From: a virus
Taxonomy: Duplodnaviria > Caudoviricetes
DNA length: 64,000 nt
Reading direction: 5' to 3' (one strand)
Virus record (IMG/VR): IMGVR_UViG_3300033072_000249
Coordinates: 1-64,000 of that record
A program made the position numbers and the translations under genes. Positions 4,718-64,000 of the stretch are shown here, in pieces. The notes beneath the pieces are model-generated. The model did not search any database. It was given only the letters and a program-made list of their open reading frames with translations, and was not told the origin of the DNA. Position 1 is the stretch's first letter; every line of letters begins with the position of its first letter.

Positions 4718-5124
4718 GCACGAACGAAACCTGGAGCCAGGCCGACGAGGCGGCCTACAACGAGATGGTGGCGCGCCGCGACCGCGTTCTTGCCGCGCGC
4801 CGCATCGGTGTGGAAAGTGTGGTCGACACCTTTGCCTGCCCGGAGCTTGTGAAGGAGGTGCTCGTCGACTGGCTCATCCAGAACGCCGATGCTGTGCGCG
4901 ACGCCCTGAAGCCCTACGACAGCGGCGTGCGCGTCGCTGAGAGTCCGAAGGGGGACTGGAACAAGTGGGATGGCGGCGAGCTGCCGGTCCCGCGCGGCAC
5001 AGACGTTCATGTCCGCTACCGAGACGGCGAGTTGCGCATCGGCAGGGCTGGTGAGGCATACATGACGAGGTGGGCCCACAAGGGCGCCTCCGATGACATC
5101 GTGGCCTACCGGGTGCTGCCATGA
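4714..5124 (+). CDS. hypothetical phage protein
   Basis: GTGA coupling; C-terminal WNKWDGGELPVP..VHVRYRDG..DIVAYRV motif familiar from phage proteins. Confidence 0.8.
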   Translation: MSTNETWSQADEAAYNEMVARRDRVLAARRIGVESVVDTFACPELVKEVLVDWLIQNADAVRDALKPYDSGVRVAESPKGDWNKWDGGELPVPRGTDVHVRYRDGELRIGRAGEAYMTRWAHKGASDDIVAYRVLP

Positions 5125-6742: not shown

Positions 6743-7608
6743 TCAACCAGGCCGGCATCAGGCTGATCGAAGAGTACGAGTCGTACCGCGAGTTCGCCTA
6801 CCCAGACCCAGCCAGTGAGCTGGCGCGCGCCACCCGTGGCATGCGCCTGCGCTGGGGGTTCCGGCCAGCCAGGGAGATCCTGGCCGAGCTGCCGCCCGAG
6901 GTGGCCAGCCTGCCGGCCAAGCCCTGGACCTGCGGCATCGGCACCACCCATGGGGTGACGCCGGACACGCGCATGTCCCGCTCGGAGGCTGCAGGCCGCC
7001 TGATCGAGGAGCTCAAGGAGTTCGAGCGCGGCGTGCGTGAAGCATGCACGCGCCAGCCCAACGAGAACCAGCTGGCTGCAATGACCAGCCTGGCCTACAA
7101 CATCGGCCTGGGCTGGAAGGGCGCCACCAAGCCGAAGGGTGCCAAGGACGGGTTCCGGCAGTCGACGGTGTTGCGCGCACACAACAGGGGTGACGACCAG
7201 GCTGCGGCCCGCGCCTTCGGTCTGTGGAATAAAGCCAATGGTCGCGAGGAGCCGGGCCTGACCCGCCGCCGCGCCGCCGAGGGCTCGCTGTACCTCAAGC
7301 CGGTGGTTGCCCCGGTGGTGATCGGCGACGACTACGAGGTGGTCGAGGCCGAGGTGCCGGACATGCCGCAGTCGGTGGATGCTGAGCGCCCGATGACCGA
7401 GAGCTCCATCAACCGTGCCGGCGTCGTCGCCGGTGGCACTGCCGCCGTGGCCTCGGTCTCTGAGGTGGCCCGCACCGTCTCCGATGTGAAGTGGTCGCTG
7501 CAGAGCTTGGGCGACTGGTTGGTGCCGGCCCTGTTGGTGGTCACCATGTGCGCGGTTGGCTACTTGATCTACGAGCGCGTCAAGCAACGCCGAGGCGGGT
7601 GGGCATGA
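6739..7608 (+). CDS. endolysin, GH24 phage lysozyme with C-terminal hydrophobic extension
   Basis: GIRLIEEYES..AYPDP..WTCGIGTT, SLAYNIG, WNKANG..GLTRRRAAE; C-terminal TM-like PALLVVTMCAVGYLIY. Confidence 0.92.
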   Translation: MINQAGIRLIEEYESYREFAYPDPASELARATRGMRLRWGFRPAREILAELPPEVASLPAKPWTCGIGTTHGVTPDTRMSRSEAAGRLIEELKEFERGVREACTRQPNENQLAAMTSLAYNIGLGWKGATKPKGAKDGFRQSTVLRAHNRGDDQAAARAFGLWNKANGREEPGLTRRRAAEGSLYLKPVVAPVVIGDDYEVVEAEVPDMPQSVDAERPMTESSINRAGVVAGGTAAVASVSEVARTVSDVKWSLQSLGDWLVPALLVVTMCAVGYLIYERVKQRRGGWA

Positions 7609-7775
7609 AGGCCCTTGCCTCGCGCAAGTTCATCCTGGCCATGGTCTCTCTGGCCAGCGCCACCTGGCTGACCGCCGCCGGCTACATCGCCGATGGCGTG
7701 TACAGCGCCGTGGTCATCGCCACCGTGGGTGGATACCTGACCGCCAACGTGGTTCAGAAGAAGGTTTCCCCATGA
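7605..7775 (+). CDS. small two-TM protein, holin/antiholin candidate
   Basis: 56 aa, SRKF then two hydrophobic stretches, next to the endolysin. Confidence 0.65.
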   Translation: MKALASRKFILAMVSLASATWLTAAGYIADGVYSAVVIATVGGYLTANVVQKKVSP

Positions 7776-10552: not shown

Positions 10553-12066
10553 GCAAGTACAGCCCCGAGCAGATCGCCCGACTCAAGCAGCTGATCCAGG
10601 ACGACGAGGCCTACGGTGCCCACTGCCTGAAGGTGTTGGACAAGCAGGGCAACCTGGTCCCCTTCCTGTGGAACCGGGCCCAGCGCTACATCCACGCCCG
10701 CCTCGAGGAGCAGAAGGAGAAGAAGGGCTACGTCCGGGCCTTGATCCTGAAGGGTCGGCAGCAGGGTTGCTCCACCTACGTGGCGGCCCGCTACTACAAG
10801 CGCACCAGCACGAGCAAGGGCAAGCGCGCCTTCATCGTCTCGCACGAAGAGAAGTCGACGCAGAACCTGTTCAACATGGTGAAGCGGTACGACGACCACA
10901 ACCCGCTCGCGCCGACGAAGAAGGCATCCAACGCTCAGGAGCTGGTGTTCGGCCGCCTGGATGGCGGCTACAAGCTGGCCACCGCCGGCTCGCAGGACGT
11001 TGGTCGAGGCAACACCGCGCAGATGCTGCACGGCTCGGAGTTCGGGTTCTGGCAGAACGCCCAGAAGCACCTGGCCGGCATCGGCAACTCGATCCCGCTG
11101 GCTGAGGGCACCGAGATCATCCTCGAGTCCACGGCCAACGGCCTGGGCAACGCCTTCCACGAGATGTGGCAGGAGGCCGAGATGGGGCGCGGCGAGTACA
11201 TCGCCATCTTCGTGCCCTGGATGTGGCAGGACGAGTACCGGCTGCCGGTGCCCACCGACTTCGAGCTCGACGAGTCCGAGCAGAAGTACATGACCGCCCA
11301 CGGCTGCGACCTCGAGCAGATGGTGTGGCGCCGCGCCAAGATCGCCGAGTACGGCAAGGGCTTTGCGTGGCTGTTCGACCAGGAATACCCGGCCACTGCG
11401 GCCATGGCCTTCCAGACGTCGACGATGAACCCGCTGATCTCGCCGCAGGATGTGGCGGAGGCGGTGAACAGCAAGTACCGCGAGCGGCAGGGCCCACTGC
11501 TCATTGGCTGCGACCCAGCCGAGGAGGGCGCTGACCGCACGGCCATCGTGTTTCGCCAGGGTCGGACGGTGTTTCGCATCGAGTACCACGAGAAGAAGCG
11601 GCCAATGGAGGTCGCCGGCATCCTGGCCAAATACTGGACTGAGTTCAAGCCCGATGGCCTGTTCGTCGACAAGGGTGGCATCGGCGCCGGCATCGTGGAC
11701 CGACTGCGCGAGATGTACATCCCGCACATCGCGGTGAACTTCGGCTCCGGCGCCACGGACCCTGAGCTCTACGAGAACAAGCGCGCCGAGTGCTGGTGGC
11801 GGATGAAGGAGTGGGTCGAGGACCATCCCAACCGCTTGCCCAACGACGCGGCCCTGATCTCCGATCTGTGCGCGCCACAGCCGATGGAGACGAGCAAGAG
11901 GAAGCGGCTCCTGGAGTCGAAGAAGGACATGAAGAAGCGCGGCATCCGCTCACCAGACGGTGGTGATGCGTTGGCCGTGACCTTCGCTGAGTTTGTCGCC
12001 CCCGTCGGGGGTGGCTTGTTGGGCGGGTCATCCGCCCCTGCTGCGCCGACGACGGCCGGTTATTGA
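10549..12066 (+). CDS. terL: terminase large subunit
   Basis: ILKGRQQGCST ATPase motif, LHGSE, IILESTANG; nuclease IGCDPA..D and SPDGGDALA. Confidence 0.95.
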   Translation: MSKYSPEQIARLKQLIQDDEAYGAHCLKVLDKQGNLVPFLWNRAQRYIHARLEEQKEKKGYVRALILKGRQQGCSTYVAARYYKRTSTSKGKRAFIVSHEEKSTQNLFNMVKRYDDHNPLAPTKKASNAQELVFGRLDGGYKLATAGSQDVGRGNTAQMLHGSEFGFWQNAQKHLAGIGNSIPLAEGTEIILESTANGLGNAFHEMWQEAEMGRGEYIAIFVPWMWQDEYRLPVPTDFELDESEQKYMTAHGCDLEQMVWRRAKIAEYGKGFAWLFDQEYPATAAMAFQTSTMNPLISPQDVAEAVNSKYRERQGPLLIGCDPAEEGADRTAIVFRQGRTVFRIEYHEKKRPMEVAGILAKYWTEFKPDGLFVDKGGIGAGIVDRLREMYIPHIAVNFGSGATDPELYENKRAECWWRMKEWVEDHPNRLPNDAALISDLCAPQPMETSKRKRLLESKKDMKKRGIRSPDGGDALAVTFAEFVAPVGGGLLGGSSAPAAPTTAGY

Positions 12067-44476: not shown

Positions 44477-45853
44477 ATGGCCAAACTTACCAGCAAAGCC
44501 TCACTCAACGTAGGCACCGAAATCGTCATCGACGAGAGCGCCAAGACGATCCAGCTGGTCGCCGCCGGCAACCTCGTCGCCAAGGATGGCGTCACCCTCC
44601 AGGCCGTCTACTCGAAGCTGGTGGACCTGTGGGCCACTGCGAGCTACCAGGACAGCCCGTTCCCGATGTACGCCATCGACGCGCTGTCGGGCCAGTTCCA
44701 GATCGGCACGGACGGCGCGACATTCTCCGGCTGGACCTGGCTGAACGACACGACGCGCAACATGCTGCGCGATGGCGGCTGGTCGGAATACTCCGCCGCC
44801 GGCGTTCTGCTGCGCCAGTACGCAGGCTTCGTCGGCCTGGGCTCTGTGAGCTCCGGAGCGCAGCCCTACTACCACCTGGCCACCACCGACGCGCCTACCA
44901 ACTTCCCCTTCACCGACCAGTTCAACGCTGGCGTGCAGGTGTACGGCGACGCGACCAATGGCAACTTCGACAAGCGCACCTACGCCAAGACGTTCGTGCG
45001 CGAGTATGGCAAGAAATTCAAGTCGTCCGTCCTGGCTGACACCGGCGCTACCGGCACCGGCGCCAACAAGGTCAACTTCCTGATCTCGAACGAAGACGAC
45101 CTGAAGATCACCAACCTACTGGGCACCGACCAGGGCGCAGCCGATGCGGCCATGTCAACCGGCGTCTACGCCGGCATCACCATCGCCTACTACAGCGCGA
45201 ACCAGACCCGCACCATTGCCGGCGTCTCGCGCAACTTCAAGATCATCATCGAGGGCAACGGCGGCACCCTGGAGCAGATCTACGCGAAGGTGCAGTACCT
45301 GCTTCGCCAGAACAGCAACATCAACACCGGCGGCACGGCCGGTTCGGTGACCGGGAAAACCGCCGATGACCTGCTGACCTTCGTGGGTGACACGCTGGAG
45401 ACGGCCACCTCCGTCTACATCGACGACGTCTTGTCGGCCGACTCCAACCGCGTCAAGTTCAAAGACGACGGCGGCACCTTCCGTGAGAACCTATTCGAGG
45501 CCGCCGGCACGATCACCTTCAACGCGCCGCTGGTTGGCGCTGGCTCCAGCTACCGCCTGATGTTCAGCGCCCCTCCGGGCGCCGGAAACGACTACGGCGA
45601 GGCGGGCGCCATCACCGTCAACAACGCGGCCGGCACGCCGATCGCCGGCACCATCAGCTCGTCGAGCATCGCATTCACCTACGACTACGACGGCAATACC
45701 CAGGGCGGGTTCTCCGCCGGCACGGAGCGCCCTGTGACGCTTATCGGCATCCGTCCTGGGTCTGGCAAGTTTGTGGTTGCCACCGGCACGCTGACCCGCA
45801 GTAAGAGCATCTCCCTGTCCTTGGTGGCAGAGCAGGACCGCGTTTACGCATAA
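44477..45853 (+). CDS. putative structural protein
   Basis: AAGGA RBS; strong codon bias; DGVTLQAVYSKL..FPM motif. Confidence 0.75.
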   Translation: MAKLTSKASLNVGTEIVIDESAKTIQLVAAGNLVAKDGVTLQAVYSKLVDLWATASYQDSPFPMYAIDALSGQFQIGTDGATFSGWTWLNDTTRNMLRDGGWSEYSAAGVLLRQYAGFVGLGSVSSGAQPYYHLATTDAPTNFPFTDQFNAGVQVYGDATNGNFDKRTYAKTFVREYGKKFKSSVLADTGATGTGANKVNFLISNEDDLKITNLLGTDQGAADAAMSTGVYAGITIAYYSANQTRTIAGVSRNFKIIIEGNGGTLEQIYAKVQYLLRQNSNINTGGTAGSVTGKTADDLLTFVGDTLETATSVYIDDVLSADSNRVKFKDDGGTFRENLFEAAGTITFNAPLVGAGSSYRLMFSAPPGAGNDYGEAGAITVNNAAGTPIAGTISSSSIAFTYDYDGNTQGGFSAGTERPVTLIGIRPGSGKFVVATGTLTRSKSISLSLVAEQDRVYA

Positions 45854-61599: not shown

Positions 61600-62649
61600 T
61601 CAGACTCCAAAGGCGATGTCTTCGCCAGCCTTGACGATGTAGCGCTTGGCCACGGCCTCATCGACGCCAAAGAAGCTGGCCACAGCTGCGACGATGCGGT
61701 CGGTGCTTGGGATCGTGTCATCCACCAGCTGAGCCGGATCAGCGAACTGCACAGCCGACTCGGCAGCGGGGGCGGGCGCCGCAGCTTCCTGTGCAGCCCA
61801 AGACTCGGTTGCGGGGTTGATCGGCTCACCCTTGTGCAGGCTTTCGATCACGCCATCTGGAACCCACTCGGCATCCTCCTGGGCGGCGGCGTCGCTGACG
61901 GCCGGGCTTGCGGCAGGCGCCTCGACAGGAGTCGGGGCGGGCGCTGCAGCGCCGGAGGCGGCTGCCAGTTGAGCCTTCAGTCGCTCGATCTCAGCTCGAG
62001 CCTCGGCCATTTCCTTCTCAAGCGCTCGGGCCTTCTCAGCCTCTTCGGCCACGAGCTCCAGGCGCTGCGCCTCACGGAGCAGGGCGGCCGCGCCGGTGTC
62101 GCGGATGTGCGTCGCCTCGGCCAGGAACTCCTCGAAGTCCTGCGTCGTCACGACCTTGCTCTGCAGTGTGTCGGCCTGGCCGCGCAGGATTGCAGCGCTC
62201 GAGCGCGGATCGATGTCACCCAGGGCGCGCAGCGCATCCAGGCGGGCGCGGATGCCGTCGATGCGGGCTTGCTCCTTCTCGGCGGCCTCCTGCTTCTCGC
62301 GCTCCTTGCGCTCTTCCTCGGCCGTGATCTGCGCATCGATCGGGGTCTCGATGAGTTTGATCGCCTCGGTGATGCGAGCAGCCTCCGAGTTCAAAGTCTT
62401 CTGCGCGGCAGCGATGCGCGACGCTTCGGCCTTGCGGATGTGCTCGACCTTGAAGCGCACTTCGCGGATCACGGCACGGGCCTTCTTGGCCTGGTCCATG
62501 CCCTTGGGGATGGTCACGTCGTAGACCACGTTGCCGTAGGTCTCCTTCAGCTTGGCCAGGCCCTTCTCGACGCGCGTCAGATCCCTGACCGCCAGCGCGA
62601 TCAAGGTGTTTTTTTGCGGCTCGGCGCCGCCTGCGGTTTGCTCTTCCAT
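61600..62649 (-). CDS. coiled-coil early protein
   Basis: CAGGAG RBS, ATG 62649; long charged helix. Confidence 0.8.
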   Translation of the reverse strand: MEEQTAGGAEPQKNTLIALAVRDLTRVEKGLAKLKETYGNVVYDVTIPKGMDQAKKARAVIREVRFKVEHIRKAEASRIAAAQKTLNSEAARITEAIKLIETPIDAQITAEEERKEREKQEAAEKEQARIDGIRARLDALRALGDIDPRSSAAILRGQADTLQSKVVTTQDFEEFLAEATHIRDTGAAALLREAQRLELVAEEAEKARALEKEMAEARAEIERLKAQLAAASGAAAPAPTPVEAPAASPAVSDAAAQEDAEWVPDGVIESLHKGEPINPATESWAAQEAAAPAPAAESAVQFADPAQLVDDTIPSTDRIVAAVASFFGVDEAVAKRYIVKAGEDIAFGV

Positions 62650-62679: not shown

Positions 62680-62708
62680 AGTGTACAACAAAAAGTTGGA
62701 GCACCAAC
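62680..62708 (-). promoter_or_regulatory. early leftward promoter with CAAC-N5-GTTG operator
   Basis: -10 TACACT 62680-62685; CAAC-AAAAA-GTTG 62686-62698. Confidence 0.7.
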
Positions 62709-62739
62709 AAAAAAATTGCCAGCGTTGCGCCGGCACCAC

Positions 62740-62763
62740 AAAAGAAAACCCGGTCGCCCGGGT
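62740..62763 (-). terminator. intrinsic terminator closing the ncRNA array
   Basis: Minus strand ACCCGG-GCGA-CCGGGT-TTTCTTTT. Confidence 0.8.
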
Positions 62764-62882
62764 GTGTTGGTTGATGATGCAGCCCGGCCAAATCCACCGG
62801 TAGGTATGCCGCCCGAGACCGCTCCCTTGCCTTATCGACTGGGTTGCGGAAGTGTCGCCTGGTCGATAACTCCAGGCACTAC

Positions 62883-63001
62883 ACCATCACATCAGCGGGC
62901 AGGACTCAAACCTGCATCCCCAGCCTGCCGGCCCTGCTCTATCAACCCTGCCGGGCGCACGTCCCCGTGCATTTACATTGAGCTACCGCTGGTGTGATGG
63001 T
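62883..63001 (-). ncRNA. tRNA-like element with extended acceptor stem
   Basis: CAGCGG/CCGCTG, TAGCTCA D-arm start, T arm GCAGG-TTTGAGT-CCTGC. Confidence 0.6.
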
Positions 63002-63136
63002 CCACGTCTTTCCGTGGTGTCACCCAGCCTTACGGCGCAGCTTCTCAGACTGCTGATAGCGCAGGGTTTCGCGTTGGTCGTTGATGGTGGCTCACAGTGT
63101 GGTGGCTGTGATTTACCCGGCCCTGTTGACCGACCC

Positions 63137-63666
63137 CCATCAAGGGTGTCGACTGGTTGTTGTTGGCAGGTCTCAGGCTCGTTCACAACCCGACCTGGCT
63201 GCCACAGTCGACACGCTTGATGGTTGATGCTGGTTGAGGCGGGACGCGAGGAATCGAACCTCTTTATGCCGGCCGGCACACCAGTTCTCCCCACTTCAGC
63301 AGCCATCAAGGCGGCGCCCTATCGAGGTAGCCTATGCGTTTTTGCAGCCGGACCTGATGTTGCGGTTCCCGGCACTTGGTAGGTACGCCGTCTTGATGGT
63401 CCCCGTCTTTCCGGGGTGTCAGAGCCAGCTTGTGGCGCTGTACTCATGCCACAGATGGCGGCAGGGAGTGCGCCTACCGACTCAACCGCTCAGCTACACC
63501 CGTTGTGAAGAGATGCTGGGCGCTGCCTTGACGACAGATCGGCCAATCGCTGAGAGGTGCCTTCGATGCACTGTACCGCCATCAAGTGTGATGACTGCCG
63601 AAGAAGTGCGGGCGGCTGTTAGGCTTACACACCCGCAAAACACATTGCAGTCACCACGCTTGATGG
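63137..63666 (-). repeat. three CCATCAAG...CTTGATGG stem modules
   Basis: 63137-63223, 63303-63399, 63579-63666. Confidence 0.85.
63231..63298 (-). ncRNA. tRNA-like minihelix ending ACCA
   Basis: TGAAGTGGGG/TCCCGCCTCA stem, T arm GAGG-TTCGATT-CCTC. Confidence 0.45.
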
Positions 63667-63831
63667 CCCTGCCGAGGCAGGTCACCAAGGAGAGTTTTTC
63701 AATCCTCTCTGCCCCAGAGCCTTGGGCCTTGCCGGCGTGCCTGGCATGAATCGCGGTTCGTAGGTTACTCGGCCCTGTCCGACGAATCGGCACTGTCCTT
63801 TCGCGTCTCCGCTATCTTGCACTGCACTCTT

Positions 63832-63904
63832 TGATACGCCAGGCCGGAATCAAACCGACTCTGCACCGCTTGAACGGCGCCGTGCTTCAACACACTCCAG
63901 GCGC
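63832..63904 (-). ncRNA. degenerate tRNA-like cloverleaf
   Basis: 7-bp acceptor with one mismatch, 4-bp D stem, 6-bp stem with TTCAAG loop, T arm GTCGG-TTTGATT-CCGGC, 3' ATCA. Confidence 0.55.
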
Positions 63905-64000
63905 GGCCGCGTGCGCTTCAAGACGCACACGGTTGATCATCAAGTGTGTTGGCTGGCTCAGACCGCCGGGCAGGTGATGGCTAACCACCCGGCATGCATA

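Follow-up and report, generated by a model that had tools for sequence, protein, structure and literature searches.

A strand-specific family of long RNA hairpins around variable cargo in non-coding phage arrays, with a tentative reading as RNase III-type punctuation

An array of long hairpins in an uncultured phage belongs to a real, strand-specific family of RNA structures that occurs in many phages, is unannotated and is absent from Rfam 15. The window analysed here, a stretch of 64,000 nucleotides, comprises bases 1–64000 of an IMG/VR record of 84,996 bp (IMGVR_UViG_3300033072_000249, here G000), which has 62.6% G+C and is complete according to CheckV. The stems of the family may be RNase III-type punctuation and at the same time stability handles that hold variable cargo RNAs, a reading that we put forward tentatively. 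Here, we will describe the modules and their relatives, and then weigh this reading against its rivals and compare the array with known systems.

Four modules lie within the window, all on the minus strand. Module A (62884–63000) is a hairpin of 117 nt with the base helix CCAUCACA/UGUGAUGG, a C.A contact at position 9 and six further pairs. The other three share the base CCAUCAAG/CUUGAUGG: module B (63137–63223, 87 nt) has C.C at position 9 and a 10-bp upper helix, GUGUCGACUG/CAGUCGACAC; module C (63303–63399, 97 nt) has A.C, a short upper helix of 5–6 pairs and a branched interior; and module D (63579–63666, 88 nt) has C.A, an 11-bp upper helix that contains GACUG/CAGUC and includes one G.U, and an apical part of 48 nt. 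The preliminary description had placed four stems at these coordinates, each with a basal helix of 8 bp, position 9 unpaired and 5–11 further pairs on the minus strand, and all of these elements, including the individual contacts, were confirmed. A fifth module, E (UCAUCAAG/CUUGAUGA, C.A at position 9, same strand), occupies window positions 63937–64000 and is cut by the window end; in full it spans genome positions 64023–63937. Its first pair is a compensatory change, U-A for C-G, and it carries U.G and U-A at positions 17 and 18. Upstream of it lies a degenerate, short sixth copy (UUCACCAAG...CUUGGUGAA).

These stems are far from what chance would produce. When the 1.69-kb region was shuffled 300 times with dinucleotide composition preserved, hairpins of this design (eight Watson-Crick pairs, a non-Watson-Crick contact at position 9 and five further pairs) appeared with a mean of 0.02 and a maximum of one, as compared with the four observed. 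Each of the four modules also folds more stably than its own shuffled versions, with z-scores from -3.4 to -7.1 (-5.8 for module B; -7.1 for module D, at -46.7 kcal/mol). A covariance model built from 15 modules, R1, scores the window modules at 22–62 bits (27.9 for A, on the minus strand only; 60.6 for B; 22.4 for C; 62.1 for D, against 43.2 on the plus strand), and module E at 67 bits in L001.

The interiors had been described as unrelated, which is correct to the extent that no common apical motif was found when one was sought among the modules. Between related phages, in contrast, an interior can be kept: both the stem and the interior of module E are conserved, with compensatory changes, at positions 4904–4989 of L002, a relative found through the adjacent 349-amino-acid protein (48% amino-acid identity). 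Module A likewise has a homologue in L002 (5310–5444), and its cargo is tRNA-like, with a 6-bp acceptor-like helix, a D-like arm with an insert and the T arm GCAGG-UUUGAGU-CCUGC, and without an anticodon loop. L138, a mis-binned contig from a phage close to G000, holds a near-identical copy of module B in which a U-A pair has become U.G. The interiors were also searched for complementarity, as had been suggested, against the phage's own genome, where the longest matches (10–14 nt) did not exceed those of shuffled controls.

Several small elements, all on the minus strand, sit beside the modules. A 22-nt hairpin with a GAAAGA loop, UGACA-CCCCG-GAAAGA-CGGGG-A (63400–63421), lies directly 5' of module C, and a second one, whose stem CCACG/CGUGG represents a compensatory change, directly 5' of module A (63001–63022); the corresponding place before module D is taken by a small hairpin, CCUGCC-UC-GGCAGG, followed by one G (63667–63681). 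The 22-mer beside module C recurs without change in over 119 viral contigs whose G+C varies widely, where it precedes tRNAs, U-runs or a module, whereas a literature search with its sequence returned only unrelated primer matches. Across the family, 33 of 35 modules are preceded by a small hairpin that ends within 0–2 nt of the 5' arm, as compared with 31% of random positions, a count to be read with the fact that many loci had been collected through the GAAAGA hairpin itself; the two modules that lack it are module B of G000 and the one in L007. Two tRNA-like elements are interspersed. One (63827–63904) lies between modules E and D and has an L002 homologue that ARAGORN labels 'tRNA-???'; the other, a minimal element between C and B (63239–63294), consists of an acceptor-like helix and the T arm GAGG-UUCGAUU-CCUC and gives a sub-threshold match of 19.6 bits to the tRNA-Sec model.

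The family was extended along two routes. An exact pattern derived from the arms (10 + 10 fixed bases) retrieved eight further viral contigs, seven of which continue into a 9–10-bp helix that the pattern does not demand. The same pattern found 91 stretches in 185,579 bacterial species genomes, and only three of the 80 matches examined fold alike, the remaining 77 having arisen by chance or in coding sequence, as with a gene conserved in Massilia and Rhodoferax; the scan serves as a chance control. The three that do fold are two modules in L138 and one in L150, a contig of a Chloroflexia MAG. Loci collected through the GAAAGA hairpin yielded many more modules with variant base helices, bringing the family table to 35 modules from 23 sequence records. 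The homologous array of L002 arranges these stems in another order, and real genes for tRNA-Gln and tRNA-Arg lie among them.

The 35 modules define the stem in detail. Positions 1–6 read C, C/U, A, U/A, C, A and are paired with U-G-A/U-U-G-G, and these six positions of the base helix are invariant across phages of 38–68% GC, although the invariance was imposed in part by our own search patterns. Positions 7 and 8 covary (A-U, C-G or U-A at 7; G-C, A-U, U-A or C-G at 8). At position 9, a non-pair is present in 25 modules (C.A in 10, C.C in 10, A.C in three, U.U in one and C.U in one), seven of which are also unpaired at position 10 and thus have a 2 × 2 loop at 9–10; the other 10 modules run through without interruption. 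The earlier claim that the mismatch is conserved therefore holds within the CCAUCAAG subclass and fails for those 10, and the non-pair is a common, not a defining, feature. Positions 11–15 are paired, with several pair types each, and positions 15–19 tend towards G-C, A-U, U.G or C-G, U-A and G-C, so that the 10-bp upper helix ends in G-A-Y-U-G/C-A-G-U-C. In an alignment of 15 sequences, 13 of the 18 stem pairs have changes in both partner bases, with 98.5% of cells paired; the latter figure follows in part from choosing modules for their pairing, whereas the compensatory changes and the pattern-scan control do not. None of 500 shuffles reaches any of the covariation measures, and all slid registers collapse. 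The apical parts, 23–104 nt long, have no shared motif, and three modules carry a T-loop and a tRNA-like fold. The idea of a conserved handle around variable cargo, put forward in the preliminary description, is thus supported by a stem that covaries across 23 records, by apical parts free of common motifs and by occasional tRNA-like cargo.

The covariation also bears on another origin of the arms, in which the inverted repeat would be a by-product of tandem tRNA-like genes that share the acceptor stem GAUGGUG/CACCAUC, with the modules as mere spacers between them. The tRNA-Asn of P1 has exactly this acceptor stem, and several arrays end in a T-arm-like hairpin followed by CACCAUCAACC. Set against this, the supposed spacers extend as covarying 10-bp helices past the common motif, that acceptor stem is not common to the 154 tRNAs of the collected loci, and no tRNA lies within 1.5 kb of 27 out of 39 modules. 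Covariation beyond position 8 largely refutes this origin, which we consider extremely improbable.

The assignment of the modules to the minus strand, which had been based on the tRNA-like parts and the terminator, was borne out by several lines of evidence, the three terminators on that strand (see below) among them. The minus-type strand has more G.U pairs than the other (52 versus 34 in the whole stem; 30 versus 9, by our own count, at positions 10–19), and position 17, with its conserved U.G, would show C.A if read from the opposite strand. The covariance model scores 15–30 bits higher on the minus-type strand, also for sequences outside the model. The real tRNAs of the relatives are co-oriented with the modules in 11 of 12 cases, and in L002 and L138 tRNA-Gln starts one base after the 3' arm of a module. 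On the plus strand, three of the four window modules would have a G.U pair at position 9, as had been noted; as the RNA is on the minus strand, position 9 is a true non-pair, mostly C.A or C.C.

The array fills a gene-free stretch that runs on the minus strand from about genome position 64430 to 62695, of which about 1.65 kb have no ORF support. Upstream of it, past the window end, lie a frameshifted gene for an XRE-type repressor and, near genome positions 64400–64365, a promoter-like element, TTGTTG-18-TATACT; a consensus promoter scan found no sigma-70 sites in the array region. Three tandem intrinsic terminators (62695–62763, minus strand) close the non-coding unit. They are followed on the same strand by the first protein gene, which encodes the 349-amino-acid protein of unknown function (61600–62649), and then by the genes for RecT and a YqaJ exonuclease, while on the opposite side genes for a replication initiator and a DnaC-like loader point rightward. 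Given the terminators, and the RecT and exonuclease genes ordered one way and the replication genes the other, the stretch heads the early-left recombination operon, as its leader or as a non-coding unit of its own, and transcription of the modules on the minus strand within a polycistronic non-coding early transcript is the best reading. ARAGORN and Rfam revealed no genuine tRNA or tmRNA in the array region, Rfam 15 covariance models, those of Y RNA/YrlA, STnc100 and tRNA among them, gave no match there at the gathering score and only chance-level matches at E<=10, and BLAST searches with the array and with one module found no match among cultured phages and E. coli genomes. There are only hints of a Burkholderiales host: family members occur in two of 151 Burkholderiales genomes, L003 has a Burkholderiales-2 RNA match above the gathering score, and L010 has a sub-threshold match to an anti-hemB-like small RNA.

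The position of the array would also allow a different kind of role, in cis, in which competing CCAUCA/UGAUGG pairings in the leader of the early-left operon would control folding, read-through of the three terminators or RNA insulation. Every array is placed between an early promoter region and the first ORF and is closed by terminators, and each UGAUGG arm can pair with the next CCAUCA downstream, be it a free CCACCAUCAAC or the next 5' arm. Thus, an unpaired CCACCAUCAAC motif at 63080–63090 (minus strand) can pair with the UGAUGG of the 3' arm of module B and replace B's 5' arm, module A has an alternative partner in CAUCAUCAACC near 62780, and upstream of module E CUUGAUGACC...GGUCAUCAAG competes with E's base. 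The module hairpins, however, with 19 bp and -40 to -47 kcal/mol, are far more stable than the alternatives of 6–9 bp, five to seven copies per array exceed what a switch needs, and a switch between alternative pairings does not require the conserved upper helix with its UA/UG box. We regard a leader switch of this kind as quite unlikely.

The arms are, in addition, recombination joints at the DNA level. A wastewater variant joins the start of module D to the start of module E, with 358 nt missing and 11 shared bases at the joint, and L138 differs both by a 200-nt insertion (tRNA-Gln and a module) at the 3' arm of D and, from the 3' arm of B to that of A, by the replacement of a cassette. Recombination at the arms explains the shuffled module order between relatives, and the likeness to repeat-spacer arrays that had been proposed holds loosely in this sense, cassettes being exchanged at the arms, with no closer fit. 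With RecT encoded by the phage, these breakpoints may reflect no more than recombination between repeats. Taken further, the arms could matter mainly as DNA homologies or single-strand hairpin joints for cassette exchange, RNA structure being secondary. The three independent rearrangements break exactly at arms, homologous modules are ordered differently in G000 and L002, and the phage encodes both RecT and an exonuclease, all of which favours such a role. But repeats of any kind attract recombination, and breakpoints at arms do not show selection for it; moreover, covariation in the variable upper helix and the conserved U.G wobble speak for a structure that is transcribed, as do the strand asymmetry and the shared orientation with tRNAs and terminators. 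An integron-type core site is absent. A role mainly in DNA exchange is very unlikely in our view. A combined version would give one stem two jobs, as an RNA to which a dimeric protein that reads double-stranded RNA would dock in a sequence-specific way and as DNA joints that swap diverse cargo RNAs, such as tRNA mimics and small RNAs, among unrelated phages, in the manner of an integron-like cassette system for non-coding RNAs, with the stem perhaps also acting as a cleavage-resistant titrator of RNase III early in infection; the titration part is suggested by G-C at the pair beside the predicted scissile bond. The combined version strikes us as distinctly improbable.

The RNase III reading does not account for the invariant base, as this enzyme normally needs no set sequence of the CCAUCA kind. 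In its favour is the shape of the stem. Its 8+1+10 positions, paired in nearly all of the 35 modules, form a rod of about 19 bp, in keeping with the two-turn helix (20–22 bp) of an E. coli-type RNase III substrate, and the small 5' hairpin could stack on this rod and extend the helix to about 24 bp. The rod has a rough two-fold symmetry, with both strands beginning C-N-R-U-C and ending G-A-Y-K-G, and is thus suited to a dimeric reader of double-stranded RNA.

According to the text of Pertzev & Nicholson 2006 (PMC1540722), the E. coli RNase III target is an 11-bp helix with distal, middle and 4-bp proximal boxes; the distal box consists of UA and then UG, of which UG is stringent, 11 and 10 base pairs away from the scissile bond; a non-Watson-Crick pair adjoins the cleavage site in T7 R1.1, and G-C at the pair beside the scissile bond is a catalytic antideterminant. 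With box register and polarity taken from that text, the UA/UG distal box falls at positions 18/17 of the modules. U-A is present at position 18 in 21 of 35 modules, and position 17 is U.G in 15 and C-G in nine; U.G(17) and U-A(18) occur together in 13, as compared with at most one in any other register. Modules B and D have C-G/U-A at 17/18, and module E has U.G/U-A. In contrast, the pairs at positions 11–8 do not follow the proximal box (G-C, A-U/U-A, A-U, A-U/U-A), a consensus that is that of E. coli and from which the host enzyme may differ. G-C occupies position 8 in 23 of the 35 modules and position 10 in 14 of them, and position 9 is mostly a non-pair. Together with the off-consensus proximal box, the 10 mismatch-free modules speak against the RNase III reading.

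In the mechanism that we propose, the rod would be recognized by a dimeric host RNase III, with U-A/U.G at 18/17 as distal box, and this box would set the scissile bonds some 10–11 bp lower, adjoining the position-9 non-pair. The 5' arm would be cut between positions 7 and 8 and, given a 2-nt overhang, the 3' arm between 6' and 5', that is, between CUU and GAUGG. Such cuts would separate cargo hairpins, tRNAs and tRNA-like RNAs from one another, as the T7 early-mRNA signals do, and would leave a five-base leader on the next RNA (tRNA-Gln in L002 and L138), which RNase P could trim. Alternatively, RNase III might bind the rod without cutting it, as the G-C at position 8 would be a catalytic antideterminant. 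The enzyme would have to come from the host, since the phage encodes no RNase III, double-stranded RNA-binding domain (dsRBD) or Ro protein, searches of G000 and G001 having revealed neither an RNase III nor a dsRBD protein. A 161-nt metatranscriptome contig spans module E and its flanks uncut and its ends match no stem, although this is an assembled contig and the public runs are mostly probably DNA. Of the processing determinants that had been suggested, RNase III thus gains indirect support, from the rod, the distal box, the members in lambda and P1 and the dicBF site described below, whereas RNase P finds no support for rod-type stems.

The fixed base could instead point to a handle for another sequence-specific RNA-binding factor of host or phage, or to a stabilizing scaffold, with the apical loops as stable small RNAs, similar to Y RNA and Ro, and no part for RNase III. 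The six invariant positions, shared by phages across so wide a range of GC, suggest base-specific reading, the variable cargo is itself kept between relatives (e.g. module E and L002), and three modules have tRNA-like cargo. A candidate protein was not found, however, the only common neighbour being the YqaJ exonuclease; G000 and G001 are without TROVE/Ro, dsRBD or RNase III proteins, the Rsr motif GNCGAA is absent, and the invariance owes something to the search patterns, as stated above. A handle of this type, without RNase III, is possible but unlikely.

If the stems are RNase III sites, they would form a large and recognizable class of punctuation in phage genomes, through which non-coding RNA operons, those of lambda and P1 included, could be annotated and split into mature products. 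Many of these would be tRNA mimics or small RNAs with no known function, and they would come first in the order of expression during infection. Exchange exactly at the arms would further offer a mechanism by which phages shuffle their non-coding RNA genes.

Among known systems, two can be set aside. The arms read CCATCAAG/CTTGATGG and not the attC core RYYYAAC/GTTRRRY of integrons with its extrahelical bases, and the cassettes are non-coding RNAs of 80–200 nt rather than ORFs. Bacterial Y RNAs (YrlA/Yrn1; Chen et al. 2014, PMC4201824) resemble the modules in having a terminal stem of 5' and 3' ends with a conserved interruption and an otherwise variable remainder, as well as a tRNA-like domain in some cases; here, such a domain is found in module A and in L036, and most modules have no tRNA-like part. 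G000 and G001 gave no TROVE/Ro match (E<=1), the Rsr motif GNCGAAN0-1G is absent from the arms and there is no Rfam match. The leader-trailer stems of bacterial rRNA operons are similar in that paired flanks enclose a cargo released by RNase III, in a precursor that also holds tRNAs, but the cargo there is rRNA, as compared with 25–100 nt here, where many successive copies share one stem sequence.

Closer likenesses come from phages. The RNase III signals of T7 early mRNA (R1.1 etc.; PMC1540722) are likewise hairpins between the units of a polycistronic phage transcript, and share with the modules a lower stem, an upper stem of some 10–11 bp with UA/UG and, by the predicted scissile bond, a small non-Watson-Crick interruption. 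They differ in having a simple loop and no invariant base sequence and in separating mRNAs, whereas the modules have a fixed CCAUCA/UGAUGG base, a variable, structured cargo of 25–100 nt between non-coding units and a proximal box off the E. coli consensus. In prophage Qin, RNase III creates the 3' end of the 72-nt DicF (PMC9438474; Faubladier et al. 1990 as summarised there), and by our own count from the annotated dicF start this end falls inside a helix of about 22 bp, GUGAAUUUUGUGAUG.../...CAUCACAAAAUUCA. This dicF-dicB helix, part of a prophage early operon with much non-coding RNA, has a branched cargo inside it and contains GUGAUG/CAUCAC, then UGAAUGCGGCUGAGCGCA, like UGAAUGCGCAGGCUGAUGCGC after the modules here; the motif UGAAUGCG...GCUGA that follows it is the same as after the modules. 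Its polarity is reversed, with UGAUG on the 5' arm and CAUCA on the 3' arm, it has no central mismatch and R1 does not match it, and it is an analogue in a related array, not a family member. A covariance scan of E. coli K-12 gave nothing with strict filters and, with filters off, a weak hairpin of 13.8 bits upstream of dicF.

The hairpins in the late leader of lambda and the ban-operon leader of P1, on the other hand, belong by the covariance model to the family itself. R1 matches a P1 ban-leader hairpin with 27 bits, on one strand, and lambda 44788–44861, just after tR', with 17.4 bits as compared with 6.7 on the other strand; a one-strand covariance match, which we took as the family test, was obtained for the window modules, P1 and lambda. 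Neither hairpin is annotated in its record, and one P1 copy lies under a CDS on the opposite strand. The two P1 hairpins (69065–69143 and 69726–69825) have eight positions, then a non-pair at 9 and an upper helix of 10 bp, and the second has C.A at position 9 and the 3' flank AAUGCACAGGCUGAU in common with the modules here. The lambda hairpin has U.U at position 9 and, as in the modules, U.G/U-A at 17/18; across lambda and P1, these two positions are U.G/U-A or C-G/U-A. Their base sequence is CAACAGG or CACUACAA instead of CCAUCAAG, and their hosts are enterobacteria. In lambda, RNase III processing sites in the late transcript are the subject of a 1988 paper, according to its title as cited in PMC7547250.

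Natural variants of the array, the run of minus-strand RNA hairpin modules (A-E) that share the base helix CCAUCA/UGAUGG and carry variable apical cargo, differ by entire cassettes, and their breakpoints lie exactly at the stem arms, the two strands of the common stem. A wastewater contig carries a 358-nt deletion from the start of module D to the start of module E (genome 63579-63938; L001 1579-1938 in the coordinates of the source phage locus), and a close relative, the mis-binned phage contig L138, shows one insertion and one replacement of cassettes (748-1634). In one of the other collected loci, L036, the module at 11612-11745 holds a near-canonical tRNA body as cargo, with the acceptor stem GGGUCGG/CCGACCC, which the 8-bp base helix prolongs, and normal D and T arms; its anticodon loop is replaced by a 3-nt loop, it has a 55-nt extra region and CCA is absent. 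In the interval separating modules E and D, two segments, namely a tRNA-like element with U.U in the acceptor stem (window 63827-63904) and CUGGGGCAGAGAGGAUUGAAAAACUCUCCUUGGUGA (about 63690-63745), show 74% identity to the homologous array of the related phage L002, far exceeding that of the flanking protein genes, and are probably further conserved RNAs.

The UGAUGG arms have possible alternative partners in free CCACCAUCAAC and CAUCAUCAACC motifs (window 63080-63090 and about 62780) and in a CUUGAUGACC...GGUCAUCAAG hairpin (L001 2014-2048). The arrays of L002, L005, L008 and L010 end in a hairpin, followed by CACCAUCAACC and a terminator.

A 22-nt GAAAGA-loop hairpin (UGACACC-N-CG-GAAAGA-CG-N-GGA) lies on the minus strand at window 63400-63421 and 63001-63022, recurs in the viral contig loci L012-L130 and has exact matches in, at the least, more than 119 IMG/VR contigs. 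These range from AT-rich to GC-rich, with 20 bases constant across such different phages and covariation at the stem pair (N/N). It is found 2-7 nt 5' of tRNA 5' ends, terminator-like ahead of U-runs, or immediately 5' of a module, and belongs to no Rfam family; the sequence CGGAAAGAC is presumably identical to 23S rRNA around A2058.

Just past the window end, a minus-strand gene for an XRE-type helix-turn-helix repressor (L001 2434-2620; genome 64434-64620) is interrupted where its reading frame slips by one base, after MKVGQQIQVRMEQLG. In phage P1, a plus-strand family hairpin with C.A at position 9 and the 3' flank AAUGCACAGGCUGAU (P1 69726-69825; L131 9727-9826) falls within plp, a CDS annotated on the minus strand as a putative lipoprotein; this ORF call may warrant re-examination.

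A Burkholderiales-2 RNA match above the Rfam gathering score lies beside the L003 array on its opposite strand (7535-7611, minus), and sub-threshold anti-hemB-like small RNAs with a CUUUCCUCCCU loop close the arrays of L010 (11068-11141, minus) and, likewise, L005. Both likenesses are a hint that the host belongs to the Burkholderiales and that the cargo includes anti-Shine-Dalgarno small RNAs.
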